Assembly: GCF_006345805.1 (NCBI RefSeq)
Contig: NC_042998.1
Coordinates: forward strand, 79,112,001 to 79,176,000
Direction of reading: 5' to 3'
Source: Octopus sinensis
Lineage: Eukaryota
DNA: 64,000 nucleotides
Below are positions 8,460 to 59,510 of the stretch, in pieces. Position 1 is the stretch's first letter, and each line of letters begins with the position of its first letter. The position numbers were made by a program, and so were the translations under genes. The notes beneath the pieces were generated by a model. The model did no database searches. It was not told the DNA's origin and saw only the letters and a program-made list of their open reading frames with translations.

Positions 8460-8700
8460 GATATATATACATACATATATATATACATACATATATATAC
8501 ATACTTATATATATATACACATATATATATATATACACACACATATATATATATATACACACATATATACACATACATACATATATATATATATACACAT
8601 ACATATATACACACATACATACATATCTATATACACACATACATACATATATATATATACACACATACATACATATATATATATATACACACATATTTAA

Positions 8701-8930
8701 GGCGGCGAGCTGGCAGAACCGTTAGCACGCCGGGCGAAATGCGTAGCCATATTTCGTCTACCGTTACGTTCCGAGTTCAAATTCCGCCGAGGTCGACTTT
8801 GCCTTTCATCCTTTCGGGGTCGATAGATTAAGTACTAGTTACGCACTAGGGTCGATATAATCGACTTAAATTCGTTTGTCTGTTCTTGTTTGTCCCCTCT
8901 ATGTTTAGCCCCTTGTGGGTAGTAAAGAAA
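8701..8930 (+). mobile_element. Full-length tRNA-derived SINE family B (tail type 1)
   Basis: Head GGCGGCGAGCTGGCAGAACCGTTAG, B box GAGTTCAAATTC, central GCCTTTCATCCTTTCGGGGTCGATA (Meta-domain-like, from memory), tail GCCCCTTGTGGGTAGTAAAGAAA. More than 10 related copies in the window. Confidence 0.9.
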
Positions 8931-19995: not shown

Positions 19996-20445
19996 GGCGG
20001 TGGGCTGGCAGAAACGTTAGCACGCCGGGCGAAATGCTTAGCAGTATTTCGTCTGTCTTTACATTCTGAGTTCAAATTGTGGGTAGTAAAGAAATAGGTA
20101 TTTCGTCTGCCGCTACGTTCTGAGTTCAAATTCCGCCGAGGTCGACTTTGCCTTTCATCCTTTCGGGGTCGATTAAATAAATACCAGTTACGCACTGGGG
20201 TCGATATAATCGACTTAATCCGTTTGTCTGTCTTGTTTGTCCTCTCTGTGTTTAACCCCTTGTGGGTAGTAAAGAAATAGGTATTTCGTCTGTCTTTACA
20301 TTCTGAGTTCAAATTTCTCCTAGGTCGACTTTGCCTTTCATTCTTTCGGGGTCGATAAATTAAGTACCAGTTGCGTACTGGGTCGATCTAATCGACTGGC
20401 TCCTTCCCCCAAAATTTCGGGCCTTGTGTCTTGAGTAGAAAAGAA
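19996..20445 (+). mobile_element. Compound (tandem) SINE family B with tail 1 then tail 2
   Basis: A head is followed by two GTAGTAAAGAAATAG-GTATTTCGTCTG junctions; the last unit ends CCCCAAAATTTCGGGCCTTGTGTCTTGAGTAGAAAAGAAT. Confidence 0.9.
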
Positions 20446-20453
20446 TATATCTA

Positions 20454-49436: not shown

Positions 49437-49598
49437 GGAGTGTGTGGCTGTGTGGCAAGTAGCTTGCTTACCAACCATATGGTTCCGGGTTCAATCCCAC
49501 TGCGTGACACCTTGGGCAGGTGTCTTCTACTATAGCCTCGAGCCGACCAAAGCCTTGTGAGTGGATTTGGTGAACGGAAACTGAAGTCCGTCGTATAT
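49437..49598 (+). mobile_element. SINE family A, 5' half, after an A25 tract
   Basis: GGAGTGTGTGGCTGTGTGGCAAGTAGC...GGTTCAATCCC head. Confidence 0.9.
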
Positions 49599-49600
49599 AT

Positions 49601-49972
49601 ACTCTTTTACTTGTTTCAGTCATTTGACTGTGGTCATGCTGGAGCACCGCCTTTAGTCAAACAAATCGACCCAAGAACTTATTCTTTGTAAGTCTAGTAC
49701 TTATTCGATCGCTATATGTTGCCGAACTGCTAAGTTACGGGGACTAAACACACCAGCATCGGTTGTCAAGCGATGCTGGGGAGACAAACACTGATATATA
49801 TATATATACGACGGACTTCTTTCAGTTTCCATCTACCAAATCCACTCACAAGACTTTGGTCGACTCGAGGCTATAGTAGAAGACACTTGCCCAAGGTGCC
49901 GTGCAGTGGGACTGAACCCGGAACTATGTGGTTCGTAAGCAAGCTCCTTACCACACAGCCACTCCTACGCCT
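49601..49972 (-). mobile_element. SINE family A, full length
   Basis: Complete reverse-complement copy; its head (about 49810-49970) is inverted relative to 49437-49598. Confidence 0.9.
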
Positions 49973-50211
49973 GTATATATATATTTTCAGGGATGGGATT
50001 TTTTCCATTTTTTTTAAAACCTAAAGGGTGGGCTAGGGATACCTTTCGAAATGATGGATGGGTCGGGTGGCATCTTTGTATGAAAAAAGTTTTGTAAATT
50101 CTTTTTCTTTCTACACCCCTCCCTCATCATCTCATTCCAGACCTATTTTGGCCAACTTTTATTTCACTTCAAAACTATGGAAAGAGCATTTTCGGTATTT
50201 TTTTTAAAATA

Positions 50212-52080
50212 GTGACACTGCTTAGAAAGGGCCCAAACAAGGGGGATTTTATAAACAATTTTCGGTCCTTCACTCTGCTTAACGCAGAGCTGAAGATTTT
50301 GGCCAAGGTATTAGCAAAAAGGTTGGCGCGTGTCGTAGGTGGAATTGTCGGGGAGGCACAAACGCGTGCCATTCTAGGCAGATCCATAAACAACAATCTC
50401 CACCTTATACACTATATATTAGAGAGGATTAACAGAATTGCTGGCAAGGTGAGGCTTTGGTCCATTTAGATCAATCTAAAGCTTTTGATAGGGTTGACCA
50501 TCGATATCTGGTGTCGGTCCTCGCGGCGGTCGGGTTGGGTCCGATCTTTCTCAGCTGGATCATTACTCTTTACAGCAACATCAATTCGATCGTTTGGGTG
50601 AACGGGCTCTTCTTGAAACCATTCTTAATCAAACGCTCGCTATGTCAAGGGTGTCACCTCTCCGCCTCCTGTATGTGTTGGCTCTTGAGCCTTTGCTGTG
50701 GAAATTGAGTGAGATGAGGGGCGTCCAGCGTGATCTAGGTTGCGGAAAATCGGTTTCGGCGTATGCGGACGACGTCACTATCATCGTATCCGAGGGGGAC
50801 CACTTACAAAGGGTAGGTGCGGCCATTAAGGTTTACGAAGCGGCGACAGGAGCAAAAATTAACCGGGAGAAATCAGTCGGCTTGCAACTTGGCACCTGCA
50901 GGGGCAAGTCGATTCCACCCAACAGCGTCGTCGGACGTTGGGACTGGTTAAAATGCTTGGGGCGATTGTCCGCTTGTAAGGCGCTCTATCTGCTGCCAAC
51001 ACTTGCTAAAGGATAGGCTAGGGATACCTTGGCTGTTGATGCGCAGACGTGCGCTGAGGCAGAGACATCTGTGGCTCTACCTTGATGGTGAAAAGGTGTG
51101 GTCTCCGTTCGTTAAACTGATGCTTCCAAGGTTTTCTAGTTTCGTTGGACTGGAACCGTGGATCAAGCGTAGACCAAGGTTGGGAGCATGGCAAACCGAG
51201 TGTCGTCAGGCTCTCGTGCGTCTCTCTCACATGGGTAATGCCAGCGGCGGGGTTTCCAGCAGGTGCGACGACGTCCTGGGGTGACCCTGGTCCTCGACGA
51301 TACTCAACTCGCCGTCCTGTTCCGAAGGACATTCGGGCCGGGACCTATGGATGATTTCCAAAAGTCTCCTGGCTTGGCAATGTTACCAAGGGGCTTTACC
51401 AGTTTTCAATAAACTCATAAGGCACGGTGCTTCTTGTCTACCCACGTTCTCAAGGTGCGAGCAGACAACGAAACTGTTCTACACGCGATTGTGCAACGCC
51501 CGAGAATATCGGAAATGTGGGTTTACGTCGAACAGCTGCTGTCATGTCTTGGAGGAGTACAACTGTTCTCCGAGTCAATCATTAAGATTATTCCACCTTC
51601 CTCCTTTAACCGAGAAGGAAAAGTTTGTTTTCTCACTGTGGTTGCTACAGTGAAAGAGGTGGTTTGGAAGACGCGAATGAAATGAGTAGCGACAGGCACC
51701 TTCGTCTCCGGTCTCGCTCTAGTGAACCTTTTTGTTTTTCATCTTAAAAGGAAAATAAGACTGGAGAAGAGGTGTCTGTCGCGTGAATATATATGAAAAA
51801 AGATGAATGGATGTGGCACGAGAACTGAGAATAAGTGATCCCTCTTGAATGTAAGCCATAGAAGTAAGGCAAGTGGTGGACCGAGGCTTGAGGGGTCGAA
51901 GCTGAACCCGGCTTCCACTCCATTGTGTTGTTCCATTGTGCTGTATTTCATTCGTTTTATTTCATAAATTTTTATTATTTTGTCATTTCTTATGTTATCA
52001 TCATCCGTGACCCTCCCCCCTCCCCAATTTATTTGTATTGTCCCCCTCCGTGTTGACCTCTGGTAGGCAATAAAGAATTT
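50212..52080 (+). mobile_element. 5'-truncated Tx1/L1-clade LINE (ORF2 RT and C-terminal zinc region, frameshifted) with 3'UTR
   Basis: NFRSFTLLNAELKILAKVLAKRL, GRSI, LDQSKAFDRVDH, QG..S.LLYVLALEPLL, AYADD, AKINREKS, ETVLHAI; ends GGCAATAAAGAA. Confidence 0.92.
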
Positions 52081-53106
52081 AAACATTGAATAAGGTGCAA
52101 GTTTCAAGTCCTTGTCGGTAACTTTTTTCTCGTCATCTTCTAATAGTAATTACCCAACTTTCTAGGCTTTTCTCACAGCTATCCCGCGTTCAAAAATTAT
52201 ACGGGTATTTTAAAAATTTTCATTCAATAAATAATAGATTACGTATACATTACTAGAATAAACTGTCAGTTTTCCAAATAGCGAATGAAAATTTAAAAAG
52301 AGAAAGTGAGAGACTTTGCAGATGAGAATGGAATACTCCGCAACGAATGGCAATGAACATCTAAATTTGCGAGAAATTGGAATTTTAAAAATTCAAGAAA
52401 TTTGACAAATCGAAATTATAGGAAATTTCTTAGAACATGAATTTATAAAAATATTTCCAGACAGTCAACCCATTAATAATTGCTTTCTTTTAGTAATGGT
52501 TACATACATAATTAATAAGCAGCTTTCTCTATTATGGTATAGATAATGCCGAATGTGCATAAAGATGTGTTCATATACGTATATAAGTTTGGGTGTCGAC
52601 GTTAATGATACTGCATGTAGAAAATTACGAAACAGCTATGCATTCGCCTCTCACACCTGATTATATACTTACACCACGCACTGTGTGTGTGTGTGTGTGT
52701 GTATGTGTGTAAGTATATAATCAGGAGGTCGATCGCCACTTACTGCATGTATTTGTCTTGAGATATCATCTCTTATAGACTTAAAAACAACTATCAAAGG
52801 AAGTACGCACCACTGAATAGGCCCATAAAGGCCTGATGCATCTAGCGCTCTCGCTTACCGCTCCTGAGATGAGTGTTTTTTTTTATATCTCTGATATGTG
52901 TTCACTCATGATACATAAATGGCTATTATAATAAAATACTCAACTGCATTACCGGATATATATATGTTCTGCTATGTATATGTATGCTTACACACACACA
53001 CACACACAGACACAGAGGTAGGCTTGTGTACAGTTTATATCAAATCTGTCGTTGCTGCTAAACACTAGTTAGTGTTGATCGAACACATCCGTAAACACGA
53101 GTATTC

Positions 53107-53895
53107 GGATCTTTTCCTTTTGAACAGCAGTTTTCAACACAATTTCTAGTTAACTAAACATTTTTAAACTTCGTATACTGGTAGAATGTGTCAAAACAAA
53201 ACTTTTTTTTTGTCTTGGCTTTGAGAAAATTGTAATTTGTTTGTTTAATGTAGTTTAATTTTTCGAATTTTAACCAATGAATCGCCTCTATTGAGCTAAA
53301 ATAATTTGCTCCGTCTAAAACTGAGACAACATCCTGTCAGTTATGTTTACGTAAACAGCTATTTATACAGAATATACGGAAAGCGTGTGTATAAAATTAT
53401 AGAATTATTTTGTTACGCGTGTGTCTAAAATTATTCGTTTAGTTTTTGTTTTGAGTTTTTGCTTTCGTTTTAGCCTTTCGTTTTTTTTCTTAATTGTTAT
53501 CCTTAAATTAATTTAAAAATTAGGAAAAAAAAAACGAAAGCAAAAACTCAAAACAAGAACAAAACGAATAATTTTAGACACACGCGTAACAAATTAATTT
53601 AACAATTAAGAAAAAAAACGAAAGGCTAAAATTTAGGGTTAGGGTGAGAGTGAGGGTTAGTGACAGGATGTTGTCTCAGTTTTAGACGCAGCAAATGATT
53701 TTAGCTCAATAGAGGCAATCGATTGGTTAAAATTCGAAAAGTTAAACTACGTTAAACTTACAAATTACAATTTTCTCAAGAAAGCCAAAAGAAAAAAATG
53801 TTTTATTTTGACACATTCTACCAGTATACGAAGTTTAAAAGTGTTTAGTTAACAAGAAATTGTGTTGAAAACTGCCGTTCAAAAGGAAAAGATCC
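53107..53895. mobile_element. 789-bp non-autonomous foldback DNA transposon (GG...CC termini, MULE- or Merlin-like)
   Basis: TIRs of about 233 bp (53107-53339 / 53661-53895) starting GGATCTTTTCCTTTTGAAC; perfect 8-bp TSD GAGTATTC at 53099-53106 and 53896-53903. Confidence 0.92.
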
Positions 53896-54669
53896 GAGTA
53901 TTCAAGCCATGCTTTCATTTTTTTTGTGCTTCAGGAATATTGTACGCCGAAGAGCATAGAGATTCAGCTGCTATTTTCAGTACGTCCAAAGAATTTCTTC
54001 CTCCATAGGTTGGAGTGAAGTACAAAGGTTTGTGAAGAAATGAGAGACAGTTGTGGGGGGGGGGGTAAAATCATCATTAAAAAACGACTAATTGATATCT
54101 AAAGATTATATTAATCACTTCGATATCAAATATCATAGTGACTAAATCTTATTAGAGAAGGCGAATTACAAACTACAAGGATTGGATATTTGGCTGACTC
54201 AAATTTGTCAGAATTGCGTGAGATAAATAAGTTTTCTCGTTACCTAGTGATTAATTAACATAGGATATGTTGTTGGGTCTTGTTTTGGCAAGTTGATCGC
54301 CTCTGAGGTTGTCTTAACCTTTCTCTGTTTTCTTTGGGATCAATACTAACAATATACACAGCTTGGCACAATAGGAAATATAGCGAAAACCTCTGTAAAA
54401 TTAATTTAAACCAGAAATATTACATATTTTTTGAGACTAGGTTAGCTCTGTTTAAGCAGACCTATGCTCTAAAGCACTCCAACCATAACCACCTCGTCAT
54501 ATTTATATATACTATTCCGTTATCCAAAGAGTTTAGAAACCGTAGTATAACACTAAAGAAAATTTGTCATTTTAACTCACTGAGTGGTCATGTCCTTTGT
54601 TGGCTCTTTAGGAAATTAAGCCTGTATATTTGGTCAAATTTTTATGATGTCTTTTTGTTTTTAGCCGTA

Positions 54670-54830: not shown

Positions 54831-56084
54831 ATTATTTTCATACCGGGAGAATAGGTAACGTCTGAAACCTTTAGACTCCCGCCTACGCTAATAGGATTTA
54901 TAGGTCCGATATTCACTTCGAACTTCTGCCGGTAGGGGTGTATAAAAACATTTCTTGGAATAGCGTTCTGAAGAGTACTGTTCTATGTTAAAAAGCATAG
55001 AACAGTGTACAGTGCTGGGTTTGTGAGGCGAGACAGGAAGGATGGTTAAAGAAGGACAGGAGAGTGTATTAATAGATGGGTTTAGATGACATTAGTATAT
55101 AGTTTGTTAGTTCAGTTAACTGAAAATTGATGAAGAAATAGAAATAACTCAGTTGAAAACAGATTTCTGTGAATTAAAAGATATTTCAGTATACAAAAGA
55201 TTTTTCTTATTCGTTGGATGATGAAGTTTCTTTGGATGTTTACGAGTACACAAGTAGCTGTATCGTCCTAGATATGTGAGCTGAGCTTCACGGTTCCACG
55301 TCTACCAATATATCAGTAACTGATTCAGAGCCGAAGTACATATTTGCTCTTAAGAGAAAGCGTGGATTTATAATACACTTTGACTATGTTATCAATGTGT
55401 TGTTGTTAGTTTCAAAGGTTGTTAGATGTTATATCTAAGGCGAATAAGTGAAGCACTTCGCACTCTTTAATGACACTCATAAGAGGATTTTAACTCATTA
55501 TTGCTTGCTAATGAAGCACTTAATTTGATTTGATTTGATTTTTTTTTGTCATAAATGTATCGACTATTTTGTGAGACGGTACGAATACATTTCACATTGT
55601 AGAAGCACGAAATAAAAATAGATATAAAACAATGATAATAACAAATAATATTAGTAATACCAGACATGGGAGGTAGCAAAACAGCAGAAAAACTTTCATA
55701 ATTAGCTTGAATTGATGCAGCGTTTAGAGTTTAAATTGACCAGAATTTGCTGTTTATCCCTCCAGAGCTTAATAAAACACATGCCAGGATATAGGGATGC
55801 CAGCTTAATTGATTATATTCTTCACATACTGACTCAAGACACTTAGCCGAATTTAGAAATGAAAATTTGTGATTGGTTGACAGAAATGGTGGACCTCAAA
55901 GTATTTAGCTGCAAAACTACGTGATCTCAGTTCAAATCCTACTTGAGATTTATACCTTCAGAGATTAATATTCGATTCAAATTCTTGTAAAAGGACAGCA
56001 TGTTTGGAGAATGGGATTCGCTACGATTTTTTCAGTTGAGTACTCTTGCTAAATTAATTGTTGATCTTATGAAAATTATAACGG

Positions 56085-57416
56085 TTTTGCCTGCGGGCCG
56101 TGATATTTATTTGTTGTTTTTCCCCTATTTAGGGGCGAAATGAGTAAAATTATGGAAGTGGTCCAAACGCCCGAGCCTGCTCGAGCCGGAAGTTACGCTT
56201 CCGTAGCCAGCCATGAAAAGAATGCAGCCACCGTTAACCTCCTCGAAATTGAGGAGGTGGTGATGGTGGTGGATGAGGAAGAATTGAAAGAAAGTAGACA
56301 ATTGATACAGAGGGAGGGATCAAGGTTGAAGTTGACGCCCCCCACCCCTGAAGTTGTCACCATTTGAAAAAAAATAGTGACATACAGAACCATGTCCTTG
56401 AAAAACAGGAAAATTGAGATAGCGAGTGAGGAGACAGTAGAAAGTTGCCGCTAAGGAATCAATGACAATATTGCATTCTACAGTAGAGAAAGTTGCTTCG
56501 GCACAGTGGACGTGCGTTTTGCCCCGCTAGAGGAGGCAATAAAGCATTCCACGACGCCATTAAAGACGGAGATATGGATGCTCCTGCCAACCTATCTTGA
56601 CAAGCATGTTGTGAGAGTGAGGATTGGCAGGGTACCCTCTGAGATAGCTGAAATGTGGCTCATAGCTGCAATATTGACGGGTACGAACGAAAACCCAACA
56701 ATATTGAATGCAACAAGGACAAAGCAAATGAACTGTGGGGGCTATGGATTGGAAGTTACAATTCAGGCCACCCAACAAGATCTGGAAAAGATATGAGAGG
56801 AAATCGAACTGCCCGAAGATGTAAAGCTACGAGTGGTGGTAGAGGGGCGACCTCACACCTGTTACCATTGTGGGAGGAGGGGACATATAAAAGCAAATTG
56901 TCCTCAAACCAAGAACGAAATGCCTGAGGAGGAAAACCAGGATGAGAAAAATAATGACGTTAAAAACACCGAAATAACATATACAGTTGAAGAATACCAG
57001 GAAGTTCCAAGCAGAAAGAGGAAGGAACCAAAAAACTATAAGAGAAAGCTATACGAAATTACAAGAGAAAACTATAAGAAATTACAAGAAAAATTTTGGT
57101 AAAACATAGACCCACTAGGATCGGAGGTGAGATATGACAGTCTGCCTCCGGTGATGGAATATGAGGGCTTAAAACCATATATCATATGGCGAATGTAAGT
57201 AATTTTTAATTTTTGATACTAAAATTGATGAAAAATGTAAAAAGAAAAAAAACAGTCAAATGATCTACTCCATAGAGGGTTACAAGTAGCCATTTCATCG
57301 TCATCTATTTTATAATTCATCTCATTCAATCGTCTATGTTTTCATGTCCCCACGTTGTGTTTTCTATCCTTGTGCCTCCACTTCTATATTGGGCCCCTGT
57401 GGCTAATAAAGAAATA
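56085..57416 (+). mobile_element. ORF1-only (HAL1-like) non-autonomous Tx1-related retroelement
   Basis: Disrupted ORF from 56140 to about 57198 (SYASVA, VRVRIGRVP, VVVEGRPHTCYHCGRRGHIKANCP zinc knuckle), followed directly by a pyrimidine-rich UTR and a LINE-like tail GGCCCCTGTGGCTAATAAAGAAATA. No ORF2 lies between them. Confidence 0.75.
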
Positions 57417-58199: not shown

Positions 58200-59510
58200 A
58201 CAGGTAATATGTATATCATTTTCACTGCAAAACAGATGTAGGAGAGGAAGGGTGCAAACATGAGATCATGAATCTTGTCCAGGTTTTCATTGATTTATAC
58301 CCTATTGTTAATAGGGTATCCCTATCGACACATCGTCGTCCAAATTGCTGTATTGATAATTAAATCATCTCATAATGAAATGGAAGTACGAGTCGATGTT
58401 AACTGGAACTTAGTGGGACCATTAATGATGAAAAATGTGGTTAAGAAAAGTGACGCTCTCACTCCAACCCCATTTTGTATTTTGCTATTGTTCTTACTCA
58501 TGCTTATACCATTGATGGCTCTTCTGAGAGATAATGTAAAGTATAGATATCCTGGTCATCTATTCAATTTACGGCATTTTACTATCAATACGAAAGTATT
58601 TCTATCTTTTATGCATGATCTCTTTTGTGTAAATGACAGCGACTTTGTTGCACATTCTATTGAAGAGATACAAATTCTTCCTGCTGTTGTAATACATCTG
58701 ATATCTATTTCTTTACTACCCACAAGGGGCTAAACAAGGACAGACAAACGGAGTAAGTCGATTATATCAACCCCAGTGCGTAACTGCTACTTAATTTATC
58801 GACCCCGAAAGGATGAAAGGTAAAGTCGACCTCGGCGGAATTTGAACTCAGAACGTAGCGGCAGACGAAATACTGCTAAGCATTTCGCCTGGCGTGCTAA
58901 CGTTTCTGCCAGCTCGCCGCCTTTTAAATGCCGCTAAGCAGTTTGTTTTGTAATACATCTGATATCGGCAATAGTCTGATGAATACGGCTGTAATGTTTC
59001 AGCCAGCTCCAAGAAACACAAGTGAAAGTAGTTGACAGCATATTCAACCGCTGTTGCTCCTTACATTGTAATATATATCAGAAGGCATTGATTATTTTGG
59101 GGTTCTTAAGTCTCGTGTCGATTCCCAATACGGCGTCTCGAGGTTGACGAAAATTACCATGTATCGTGACTATGTGTTAACTTCCCTTCTTTACTCCAGC
59201 AAGTCATGACTCTTTTCAAAGTATCATGTAAAGGTTTTTGACGGCTTTCATCTGAACGGTTTGAGACATTCTGAATGTCAGCTGGCCCTGGTGGACTCCA
59301 GAAACAGAGATTTTGATGGGGAACCGAAGTCTTGAATATTGAAGCAATGTTACCCAAACATCGTTTACGCTAAACCGAACATTTTGTACGAATGAATGAT
59401 CGAATGAAAACGGAACAAGTGTTTATAGGGAAGTTGGGTGCGGAAAACGCCTTCGACCCAAAGCAAGAGTGTGGTTTAAGGATTATGTCATGGTCATCTT
59501 TGAGAATATT
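58200..59510 (+). mobile_element. RTE-clade LINE RT relic
   Basis: HNEMEVRV..MKNVVKKSDALTPTPF..YRYPGHLFNLRHF..DLFCVNDSDFVAHSIEEIQ, then ISLMNTAVMFQPAP, matching RTE-1 motifs. Confidence 0.8.
58706..58947 (-). mobile_element. Young SINE family B (tail 1) with a 19-bp TSD
   Basis: TSD TTGTAATACATCTGATATC at 58687-58705 and 58948-58966. Confidence 0.92.

Follow-up and report, generated by a model that had tools for sequence, protein, structure and literature searches.

The window analysed in this study, a stretch of 64,000 nucleotides of the Octopus sinensis genome, contains the decayed end of a LINE, copies of a SINE referred to here as SINE B, and an element with ORF1 only, for which we also use the term half-LINE. 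The features concerned are the following:

50208..52077, + strand: LINE 3' fragment, decayed and 5'-truncated, with ORF2 from the RT to the C-terminus, 3' UTR and tail
52038..52077, + strand: LINE tail, with a pyrimidine tract, the hairpin ACCT-CTGGT-AGGC (52056-52068) and AATAAAGAA, without poly(A)
52078..52420 (end approximate), + strand: 3' part of an unrelated interspersed repeat, directly after the LINE
8699..8930, + strand: full SINE B unit, with a tRNA-like head carrying A- and B-box-like motifs, a body and a tail
8890..8929, + strand: SINE B tail, with the hairpin GCCC-CTTGT-GGGT (8908-8920) and AGTAAAGAA
19994..20446, + strand: nested SINEs, a 5'-truncated SINE B piece within a SINE B2 copy
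20237..20276, + strand: SINE B tail, with the hairpin ACCC-CTTGT-GGGT (20255-20267)
56063..57414, + strand: ORF1-only element (half-LINE) of about 1.35 kb, 5' end approximate, with 3' UTR and tail
57384..57413, + strand: ORF1-only tail, with the hairpin GGCC-CCTGT-GGCT (57392-57404) and AATAAAGAA
58708..58923, - strand: SINE B of a 216-bp subfamily, with a shortened tail (58708-58736, the fifth in the window) and the same hairpin

Translations of the LINE fragment contain pieces of RVT_1 together with frameshifts and stops, and the homology between this fragment and full-length copies starts at about position 50208. The 5' arm of its hairpin, ACCT, gives rise to an A-C mismatch; most copies of the family have GCCT. 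The junction with the following repeat at 52078 recurs at two loci (L006 and L011), which reflects either targeting or 3' transduction; 40 of 549 candidates were scored for this part. The ORF1-only element has an ORF1 starting from the ATG at 56140, which contains stops and encodes a zf-CCHC zinc knuckle (E-value of 1.4e-5), and no ORF2 sequence was found within 56063..57414. Searches for target site duplications (TSDs) at these loci revealed no clear TSD for the LINE and none for the ORF1-only element. The nested SINE B piece has two tails (20085-20093 and 20268-20276) and is flanked by a 35-bp direct repeat (20044-20078, repeated at 20281-20315). Elsewhere in the window, ARAGORN called a tRNA-Arg(ACG) at 656-729 within a simple-repeat tract. 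A second abundant SINE-like interspersed repeat family, of which other copies exist, is represented at 49443-49966, just 5' of the LINE fragment, and two copies of one sequence of about 350 bp, inverted and face to face at 53060-53915, are possibly a non-autonomous DNA transposon.

An earlier, sequence-only reading of the window had listed four tail strings from the LINE, SINE B and the ORF1-only element as carriers of one hairpin. These strings match the window letter for letter, the one at 20237-20276 being a variant with the arm ACCC. Within the window their likeness is marginal and barely above chance, whereas it is firm genome-wide. For the LINE 40-mer, the score was 28 with the SINE tails and 19 with the tail of the ORF1-only element, and 40 locally shuffled windows gave a best score of 27 and a mean of 22.8. 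As the window tails also do not fold significantly (see below), the homology rests on the other copies, which were taken from the same 2.72-Gb genome. When 80 LINE loci were searched with a tail model, 71 had a match at a distance of 300-850 nt past the ORF2 anchor (68 of 77 when three duplicates are left out; the match in L069 is the tail of an inserted SINE). Among these are 35 of the 40 held-out LINE loci, fetched after the seeds of the model had been fixed, and reversed sequence gave no matches of 10 bits or more. The earlier reading had also envisaged that full-length LINEs might end in a different sequence. Instead, the tail is carried by four full-length copies with ORF1 and APE/RT (L106, L107, L108 and L115).

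The last 45 nt of 56 LINE representatives showed an identity of 0.69 in 500 pairs, a figure that includes the 9-nt motif on which the tails were anchored, versus 0.48 after shuffling, and 3' UTR windows upstream of the tail reached 0.49-0.56 versus 0.47-0.54 in shuffled sequence (500 pairs, 56 representatives). Runs of at least 10 A were present in 2 of 111 LINE tails, 0 of 50 ORF1-only tails and 0 of 138 SINE tails. Indeed, the DNA copies stop a few bases past AATAAAGAA without poly(A), as is expected under stringent 3' recognition. AATAAA lies directly 3' of the stem in the LINE and ORF1-only tails, which were selected on this motif, and AGTAAA was found in 98 of the 138 SINE tails. Homology of the tail across LINEs, ORF1-only elements and SINE B is supported by these comparisons between copies.

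The tail is not peculiar to the window LINE but is found throughout a clade of LINE families. Relatives of the window LINE are about 5.4 kb at full length, encode a CCHC ORF1 and an APE/RT ORF2, and in some cases lie in tandem arrays. A zf-CCHC domain was detected in the window ORF1 and, below Pfam's cut-off, in the ORF1 of L106 and L107; the ORF2 domains were Exo_endo_phos, RVT_1 and a weak zf-RVT. The best solved relative of ORF2 is human L1 ORF2p (E-value of 1e-62; 1e-23 for R2), and the nearest named protein, from Argonauta hians, is 61% identical. In an RT tree (FastTree), the sampled rows grouped with two NCBI proteins, including one from A. hians, in a single clade with a support of 99; one long-branched row fell outside. 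The 3' neighbours vary by LINE family and include (TATC)n, (TC)n, (TTA)n, the SINE and other repeats. For Tx1-clade elements, the cited passages of PMC4494074 describe family-specific targets in microsatellites or other transposons, and the cited part of PMC5203782 lists the CCHC zinc-knuckle ORF1, or type I ORF1, as a Tx1-clade trait. By architecture and targeting, the octopus clade is Tx1-like, and we provisionally call it L1/Tx1-type; the matches of the searches included no named Tx1 reference.

The compensatory stem changes that had been claimed from the window were borne out by the genome-wide copies: the 4-bp stem covaries, with two-sided changes at all four pairs. In a sequence-only alignment of 34 hand-chosen representatives, 79.4% of the cells were paired versus 63.2% after shuffling, and the score was 0.513 versus 0.210 (0 of 500 shuffles reached the observed level). 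Slid stem registers paired in at most 56.6% of the cells of these representatives. It should be noted that the shuffle counts are not clean probabilities, because the representatives are related and hand-picked. In an arm-swap test with 12 distinct arms, native arms paired better than swapped ones (44 of 48 pairs formed, p-value of 1.5e-4). All four pairs were formed in 19 of 26 clusters and in 66 of 111 LINE, 29 of 50 ORF1-only and 109 of 138 SINE copies, some tail copies having a C-A mismatch at the inner pair. The cluster-consensus stems include GCCT/AGGC, GCCC/GGGC, GCCC/GGGT, AGCC/GGCT and ATCC/GGAT, and further TGGC/GCCA, AGGC/GCCT, AAGC/GCTT and GTTC/GGAT. The 5-nt CYKGT loop that had been proposed describes the window (CTGGT, CTTGT, CTTGT and CCTGT) but is not general: loops are 4-6 nt long and mostly end in RT, and the consensus for the cluster of the window's ORF1-only element is CTCAGT.

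In thermodynamic terms, the hairpin is weak. Neither the five tails of the window nor the end of SINE B2 folded better than shuffles (z from +0.78 to -1.34), several of them preferring other pairings, and single-sequence folding of ten tails was no better than shuffles for nine of them. The sole significant fold, that of L050 (z of -2.7), was rejected as the tail hairpin because its pairing differs. RNAalifold predicted zero consensus pairs. A flip of the second stem pair, with GC in the 3' arm, was seen in 24 of 50 ORF1-only tails, mostly in one 17-row subclade, versus 2 of 111 LINE tails. If these flipped-stem RNAs are copied by LINE enzymes with CC/GG stems, the enzyme must read shape; the LINE sampling began from the window ORF2, so that a flipped-stem LINE could be unsampled. 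The hairpin is likely recognised by its shape rather than by its stem sequence.

Our observations support the view that the ORF1-only element represents a genuine class of mobile elements, which have TSDs and an ORF1 under selection. A query with the window ORF1 returned 85 loci, some of them repeats and 25 with a flank of only 1.5 kb, in which ORF1 led to the tail in 40 cases, to ORF2 sequence in 4 and to neither in 41. With two flipped-stem queries from other subfamilies (50 loci), the nearest upstream feature was ORF1 in 28 cases, ORF2 in 0 and neither in 22. At 8 of these 50 loci, truncated copies are bounded on either side by TSD-like repeats measuring 14-18 bp, and a further one measured 22 bp. 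An IQ-TREE tree of ORF1 was built from 41 hand-picked rows, set apart from the chimeric loci L007, L125, L133, L134 and L240 and from unclassified rows. It placed 24 ORF1-only rows, including that of the window, on one branch (SH-aLRT of 97), and L115 and L029 grouped among the LINE ORF1s. A second ORF1 tree (FastTree) comprised 96 rows. As a dN/dS calculation via hmmalign overestimated the distances already in the control, codon positions were compared instead (151 pairs versus 3 intact references). The ratio of differences at codon position 2 to those at 4-fold sites was 0.40-0.47 between half-LINE families and 1.03 in the two closest pairs; the LINE-S control in this comparison spans subfamilies and is not neutral. 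We read the half-LINEs as an old mobile lineage in which ORF1 was kept working.

Some landing sites are common to ORF1-only and LINE copies, three ORF1-only and four LINE copies being found at one site, to which L372 also belongs. The site common to LINE and ORF1-only families begins with TGTTACA (L075, L179, L184, L204, L096, L233, L255 and L372), and L143 tails (loci L129 and L143) are followed by a motif resembling a primer-binding site. We presume that the TGTTACA site and the L143 targets may be LTRs of LTR retrotransposons. In five loci (L133, L121, L125, L134 and L240), a half-LINE 5' part is joined at differing points to LINE ORF1 or ORF2. The view that L133, L121 and L125 are LINEs with a half-LINE-type ORF1 was rejected, since they contain two ORF1 pieces with differing junctions; the five chimeras may have arisen by nested insertion or by template switching when two RNAs were packaged together. 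Four LINE-S copies (L290, L295, L302 and L303) contain only ORF1 and the end of ORF2, with deletion breakpoints that all differ, and are possible fresh half-LINE births. Lastly, L308 (G000:C21:2403500-2407600) contains, twice in 4 kb, a tandem array with a 144-bp unit from the 3' end of the ORF1-only family HAL_3. A new short SINE was rejected as a reading of the array sequence, as its matches are the 3' ends of HAL_3 copies.

The SINE B head contains A/B-box-like motifs and shows end pairing of GGCGG with CCGCC; ARAGORN called none of the SINE copies as a tRNA, and there was no Rfam match below an E-value of 0.5. Over 53-58 nt, the SINE B tail aligned best with HAL_3, the best copies of which scored 70-81. 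The best LINE score was 62, with 52-58 for LINE-S, 40-43 for the window LINE and a LINE median of 46 (the four top rows of this ranking were SINE fragments). Since the tail is closer to HAL_3 than to any sampled LINE, it was likely captured from a half-LINE. TSDs were identified in 42 of 76 full SINE B units, with a median length of about 16 bp; they start with G/T-G/A-T-A-T (KRTAT), and the element ends in AAAGAAATA. The SINE's own GGTAT site follows 15 of the 76 units, and 16 of the 76 belong to multimers, several of which lie within one TSD; as SINEs next to LINE-S loci are among the units sampled, nested cases are over-represented. A SINE B2 subfamily (34 copies, of which the window copy at 20280-20446 is decayed) shares head and body with SINE B and has a different tail, consisting of a flipped-type hairpin, (G/A)GGC-CTTGT-GCCT, followed by AGAGTAGAAAAG. 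This tail resembles the HAL_7 stem over about 13 nt. SINE and ORF1-only copies have also landed in the SINE head, close to its positions 17 and 7 (L025, L112, L123, L265, L272, L287, L297, L300, L370 and L381).

Among the LINE families, LINE-S stands out by its landing site within the SINE. In 27 of the 30 top LINE-S copies the element is followed by SINE position 52; two others are near matches and one lacks the tail. The site is GGTAT, and LINE-S ends in AAAGAAATT. The SINEs that host it belong to at least four subfamilies, and a SINE head fragment was present at the LINE-S 5' end in 6 of 12 loci reaching ORF1, many 5'-truncated copies having no SINE head at the 5' junction. The spread over at least four subfamilies and the SINE heads at 5' ends indicate repeated targeting. 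The divergence from the consensus was 5.1% for LINE-S, a value biased low because the copies are top search matches, and 5.3% for SINE B. The sequence-only reading had proposed to compare target preference and age; by both, LINE-S agrees with SINE B and the window LINE family does not. A common target and age also served to assign the partner LINE in crocodilians (PMC4494074, cited passages), and it is on a site and divergence in common with SINE B that we regard LINE-S as the best candidate for the partner. Mobilisation of SINE B mainly by this sister family, and not by the decayed window LINE, appears likely from the copies compared. Nevertheless, several RTs may serve SINE B, given the TATAT mode of its targets (see below) and a LINE-S tail score only little above that of other LINEs.

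Taken together, we consider it probable, with room for doubt, that the LINE clade, the half-LINEs and SINE B share one covarying hairpin tail without poly(A), that this tail would be read by ORF2, likely by shape, and that SINE B is moved mainly via LINE-S. The half-LINE lineage would have arisen by loss of ORF2, with ORF1 staying under selection, and the ORF1 protein would likely help its own RNA to enter LINE particles. A tRNA-like head would then have taken the last 53-58 nt of a HAL_3-type half-LINE, likely by template switching. In target-primed reverse transcription, ORF2 would bind the hairpin, and the cDNA would start about 10-12 nt downstream, at the endonuclease nick. In LINEs and half-LINEs, AATAAA is probably the signal by which Pol II transcripts obtain their 3' end; the AGTAAA of the main SINE subfamily may be a relaxed form of it, and insertion of SINE into SINE followed by read-through likely produces the head+(body)n multimers. 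Binding of the 3' stem-loop by ORF2 is described for the stringent LINEs of zebrafish in the cited part of PMC4176376. A wider picture, which we hold tentatively and rate slightly short of an even chance, is a three-tier economy in which the LINEs would read shape, the half-LINE would have flipped a pair and yet travel, the SINE would have obtained its tail from the half-LINE, and one LINE would land in the very SINE that it multiplies. If this is true, every round creates new landing sites.

The alternative that survives best, although we regard it as unlikely, is that LINEs of the whole clade recognise the hairpin and that SINE B is moved by several of their families instead of one main partner. 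The site would then be set not by one endonuclease but by a few 3'-terminal RNA bases, a legacy of former landing sites, which anneal to nicked DNA. This view is supported by the two target modes of SINE B, TATAT being almost as frequent as GGTAT, by the short junction of its own that each family has past AAAGAA, by the free variation of the stem sequence among families, and by the mismatches between TSD copies, which peak at the first base (6 of 42, versus 0-3 further in). However, the two bases past AAAGAAA mismatch the target in 29 and 28 of 42 cases, which indicates that the SINE B end is a fixed point, like that of LINE-S. Moreover, one degenerate endonuclease motif, KRTAT, covers both GGTAT and TATAT, and the cited passages of PMC4494074 ascribe the choice of target mainly to the endonuclease.

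It is considerably less probable that the RT is relaxed and that the hairpin and AATAAA form an element on which all three classes depend for the processing of the RNA 3' end or for RNA stability. The stem is indeed short and weak, and AATAAA directly follows it in the LINE and ORF1-only tails, with the reservation that these were selected on the motif. Yet the SINE, likely a Pol III transcript, retains the stem even though most of its tails have AGTAAA, and the copies stop at a constant distance past the stem without poly(A). Relaxed L1 insertions differ from copies that end in this way. The contrast between stringent and relaxed L1 is drawn in the cited part of PMC3472496.

That the RT of the window LINE family serves both SINE B and the ORF1-only element, as the sequence-only reading had assumed, is very improbable, although this LINE shares their tail and is placed in the same clade by its RT. 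Its junctions are of the type TTTA(AAC), three copies sitting in another, unrelated repeat, and not KRTAT as in SINE B. In addition, it has a T-A inner stem pair that is absent from SINE B, its score against the SINE tail lies under the LINE median, and the SINE tail is closer to an ORF1-only family, HAL_3. Its best copies are also only 69-82% identical to the window copy over the 3' end, versus 92-96% among the top SINE matches. What stands of the earlier proposal that a stringent Tx1-type RT moves both a SINE and a half-LINE is the common covarying tail without poly(A); what falls is the window LINE as sole driver. Lastly, a chance likeness of pyrimidine tracts and poly(A) signals, or a stray SINE fragment posing as LINE tail, would agree with the in-window score at the edge of chance, but is refuted by the steady distance of the tail after ORF2 in the held-out loci, its absence from reversed sequence and the compensatory stem changes, and has a negligible probability.

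The cited parts of PMC3472496 and PMC3747384 treat it as an open question whether the L1 clade was originally stringent in its 3' recognition. An animal clade with a covarying tail without poly(A) on many families offers a natural series of stem variants for this question. Our reading would also name the likely engine for a major SINE in octopus genomes, would make half-LINEs a demonstrated source of SINE tails and would provide an example of a LINE multiplying the target into which it inserts. Each component by itself is known already. Added here are the covariation test at the family level, the finding that the flipped stem is concentrated in the ORF1-only lineage, and the descent of the SINE tail from a half-LINE, which is likely from the alignments described above.

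The sharing of tails between SINEs and LINEs is in general textbook knowledge. In the cited portions of the respective papers, stringent pairs with a common 3' stem-loop are described for zebrafish ZfL2-1/ZfL2-2 (PMC4176376), and L1-clade cases for maize ZmSINE2/3 with LINE1-1_ZM and for Chlamydomonas SINEX-3_CR (PMC3472496, PMC3747384). The surveys reported there count L1-clade tails in only 3 SINEs among 58 pairs, the named cases being from plants and a green alga. Like the stringent pairs, the octopus elements have a conserved common tail of about 50 nt below a diverged upstream UTR, and a hairpin with compensatory changes, in which the stem varies and the flank is conserved. Unlike the named plant and alga pairs, they reside in an animal, their copies have neither poly(A) nor a repeat tail, the tail occurs on many LINE families, and the closest counterpart of the SINE tail is found in a non-autonomous family with ORF1 only.

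For octopods themselves, the tRNA-derived SINEs OR1/OR2 (Ohshima and Okada 1994, cited in PMC4824008 and PMC4758252) and a count of 80 L1-Tx1 families in Octopus vulgaris (PMC13282606) are on record, and our findings have the abundance of SINEs and the presence of L1-Tx1 LINEs in common with them. The cited passages of these records describe no tail sharing, partner or target, and a search of the literature, as distinct from Repbase and SINEBase annotation, returned no description of a shared tail in octopods.

The crocodilian SINEU elements, as described in the cited passages of PMC4494074, are mobilised by Tx1-Mar and have snRNA heads, a poly(A) tail and Mariner as target; for SINEU-1, no LINE with the same 3' end was found. 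Here the likeness lies in target-specific LINE families in microsatellites or transposons, in tandem insertions and in a partner assigned by target and age. The octopus system differs in that the tail is common to SINE and LINE, and in that the LINE target is the SINE itself.

Non-autonomous LINEs that have ORF1 are represented by HAL1, HeT-A and Ag-Sponge, of the clades L1, Jockey and CR1 (cited parts of PMC5786205 and PMC5753468). HAL1 proper, a derivative of mammalian L1, was rejected as an identification of the octopus elements, as these have a CCHC-type ORF1 and an octopod nearest named relative. Like these three elements, the octopus half-LINEs have kept ORF1 and the LINE 3' end, and they appear to have lost ORF2 and to be mobile in trans; unlike them, they form a deep, diversified lineage with a compensatory stem change of its own. 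In its cited passage, PMC5786205, a paper on the middle parts of SINEs, argues that protein-coding non-autonomous elements are not a source of SINEs. Contrary to this argument, the best match of the SINE B tail is a protein-coding half-LINE.
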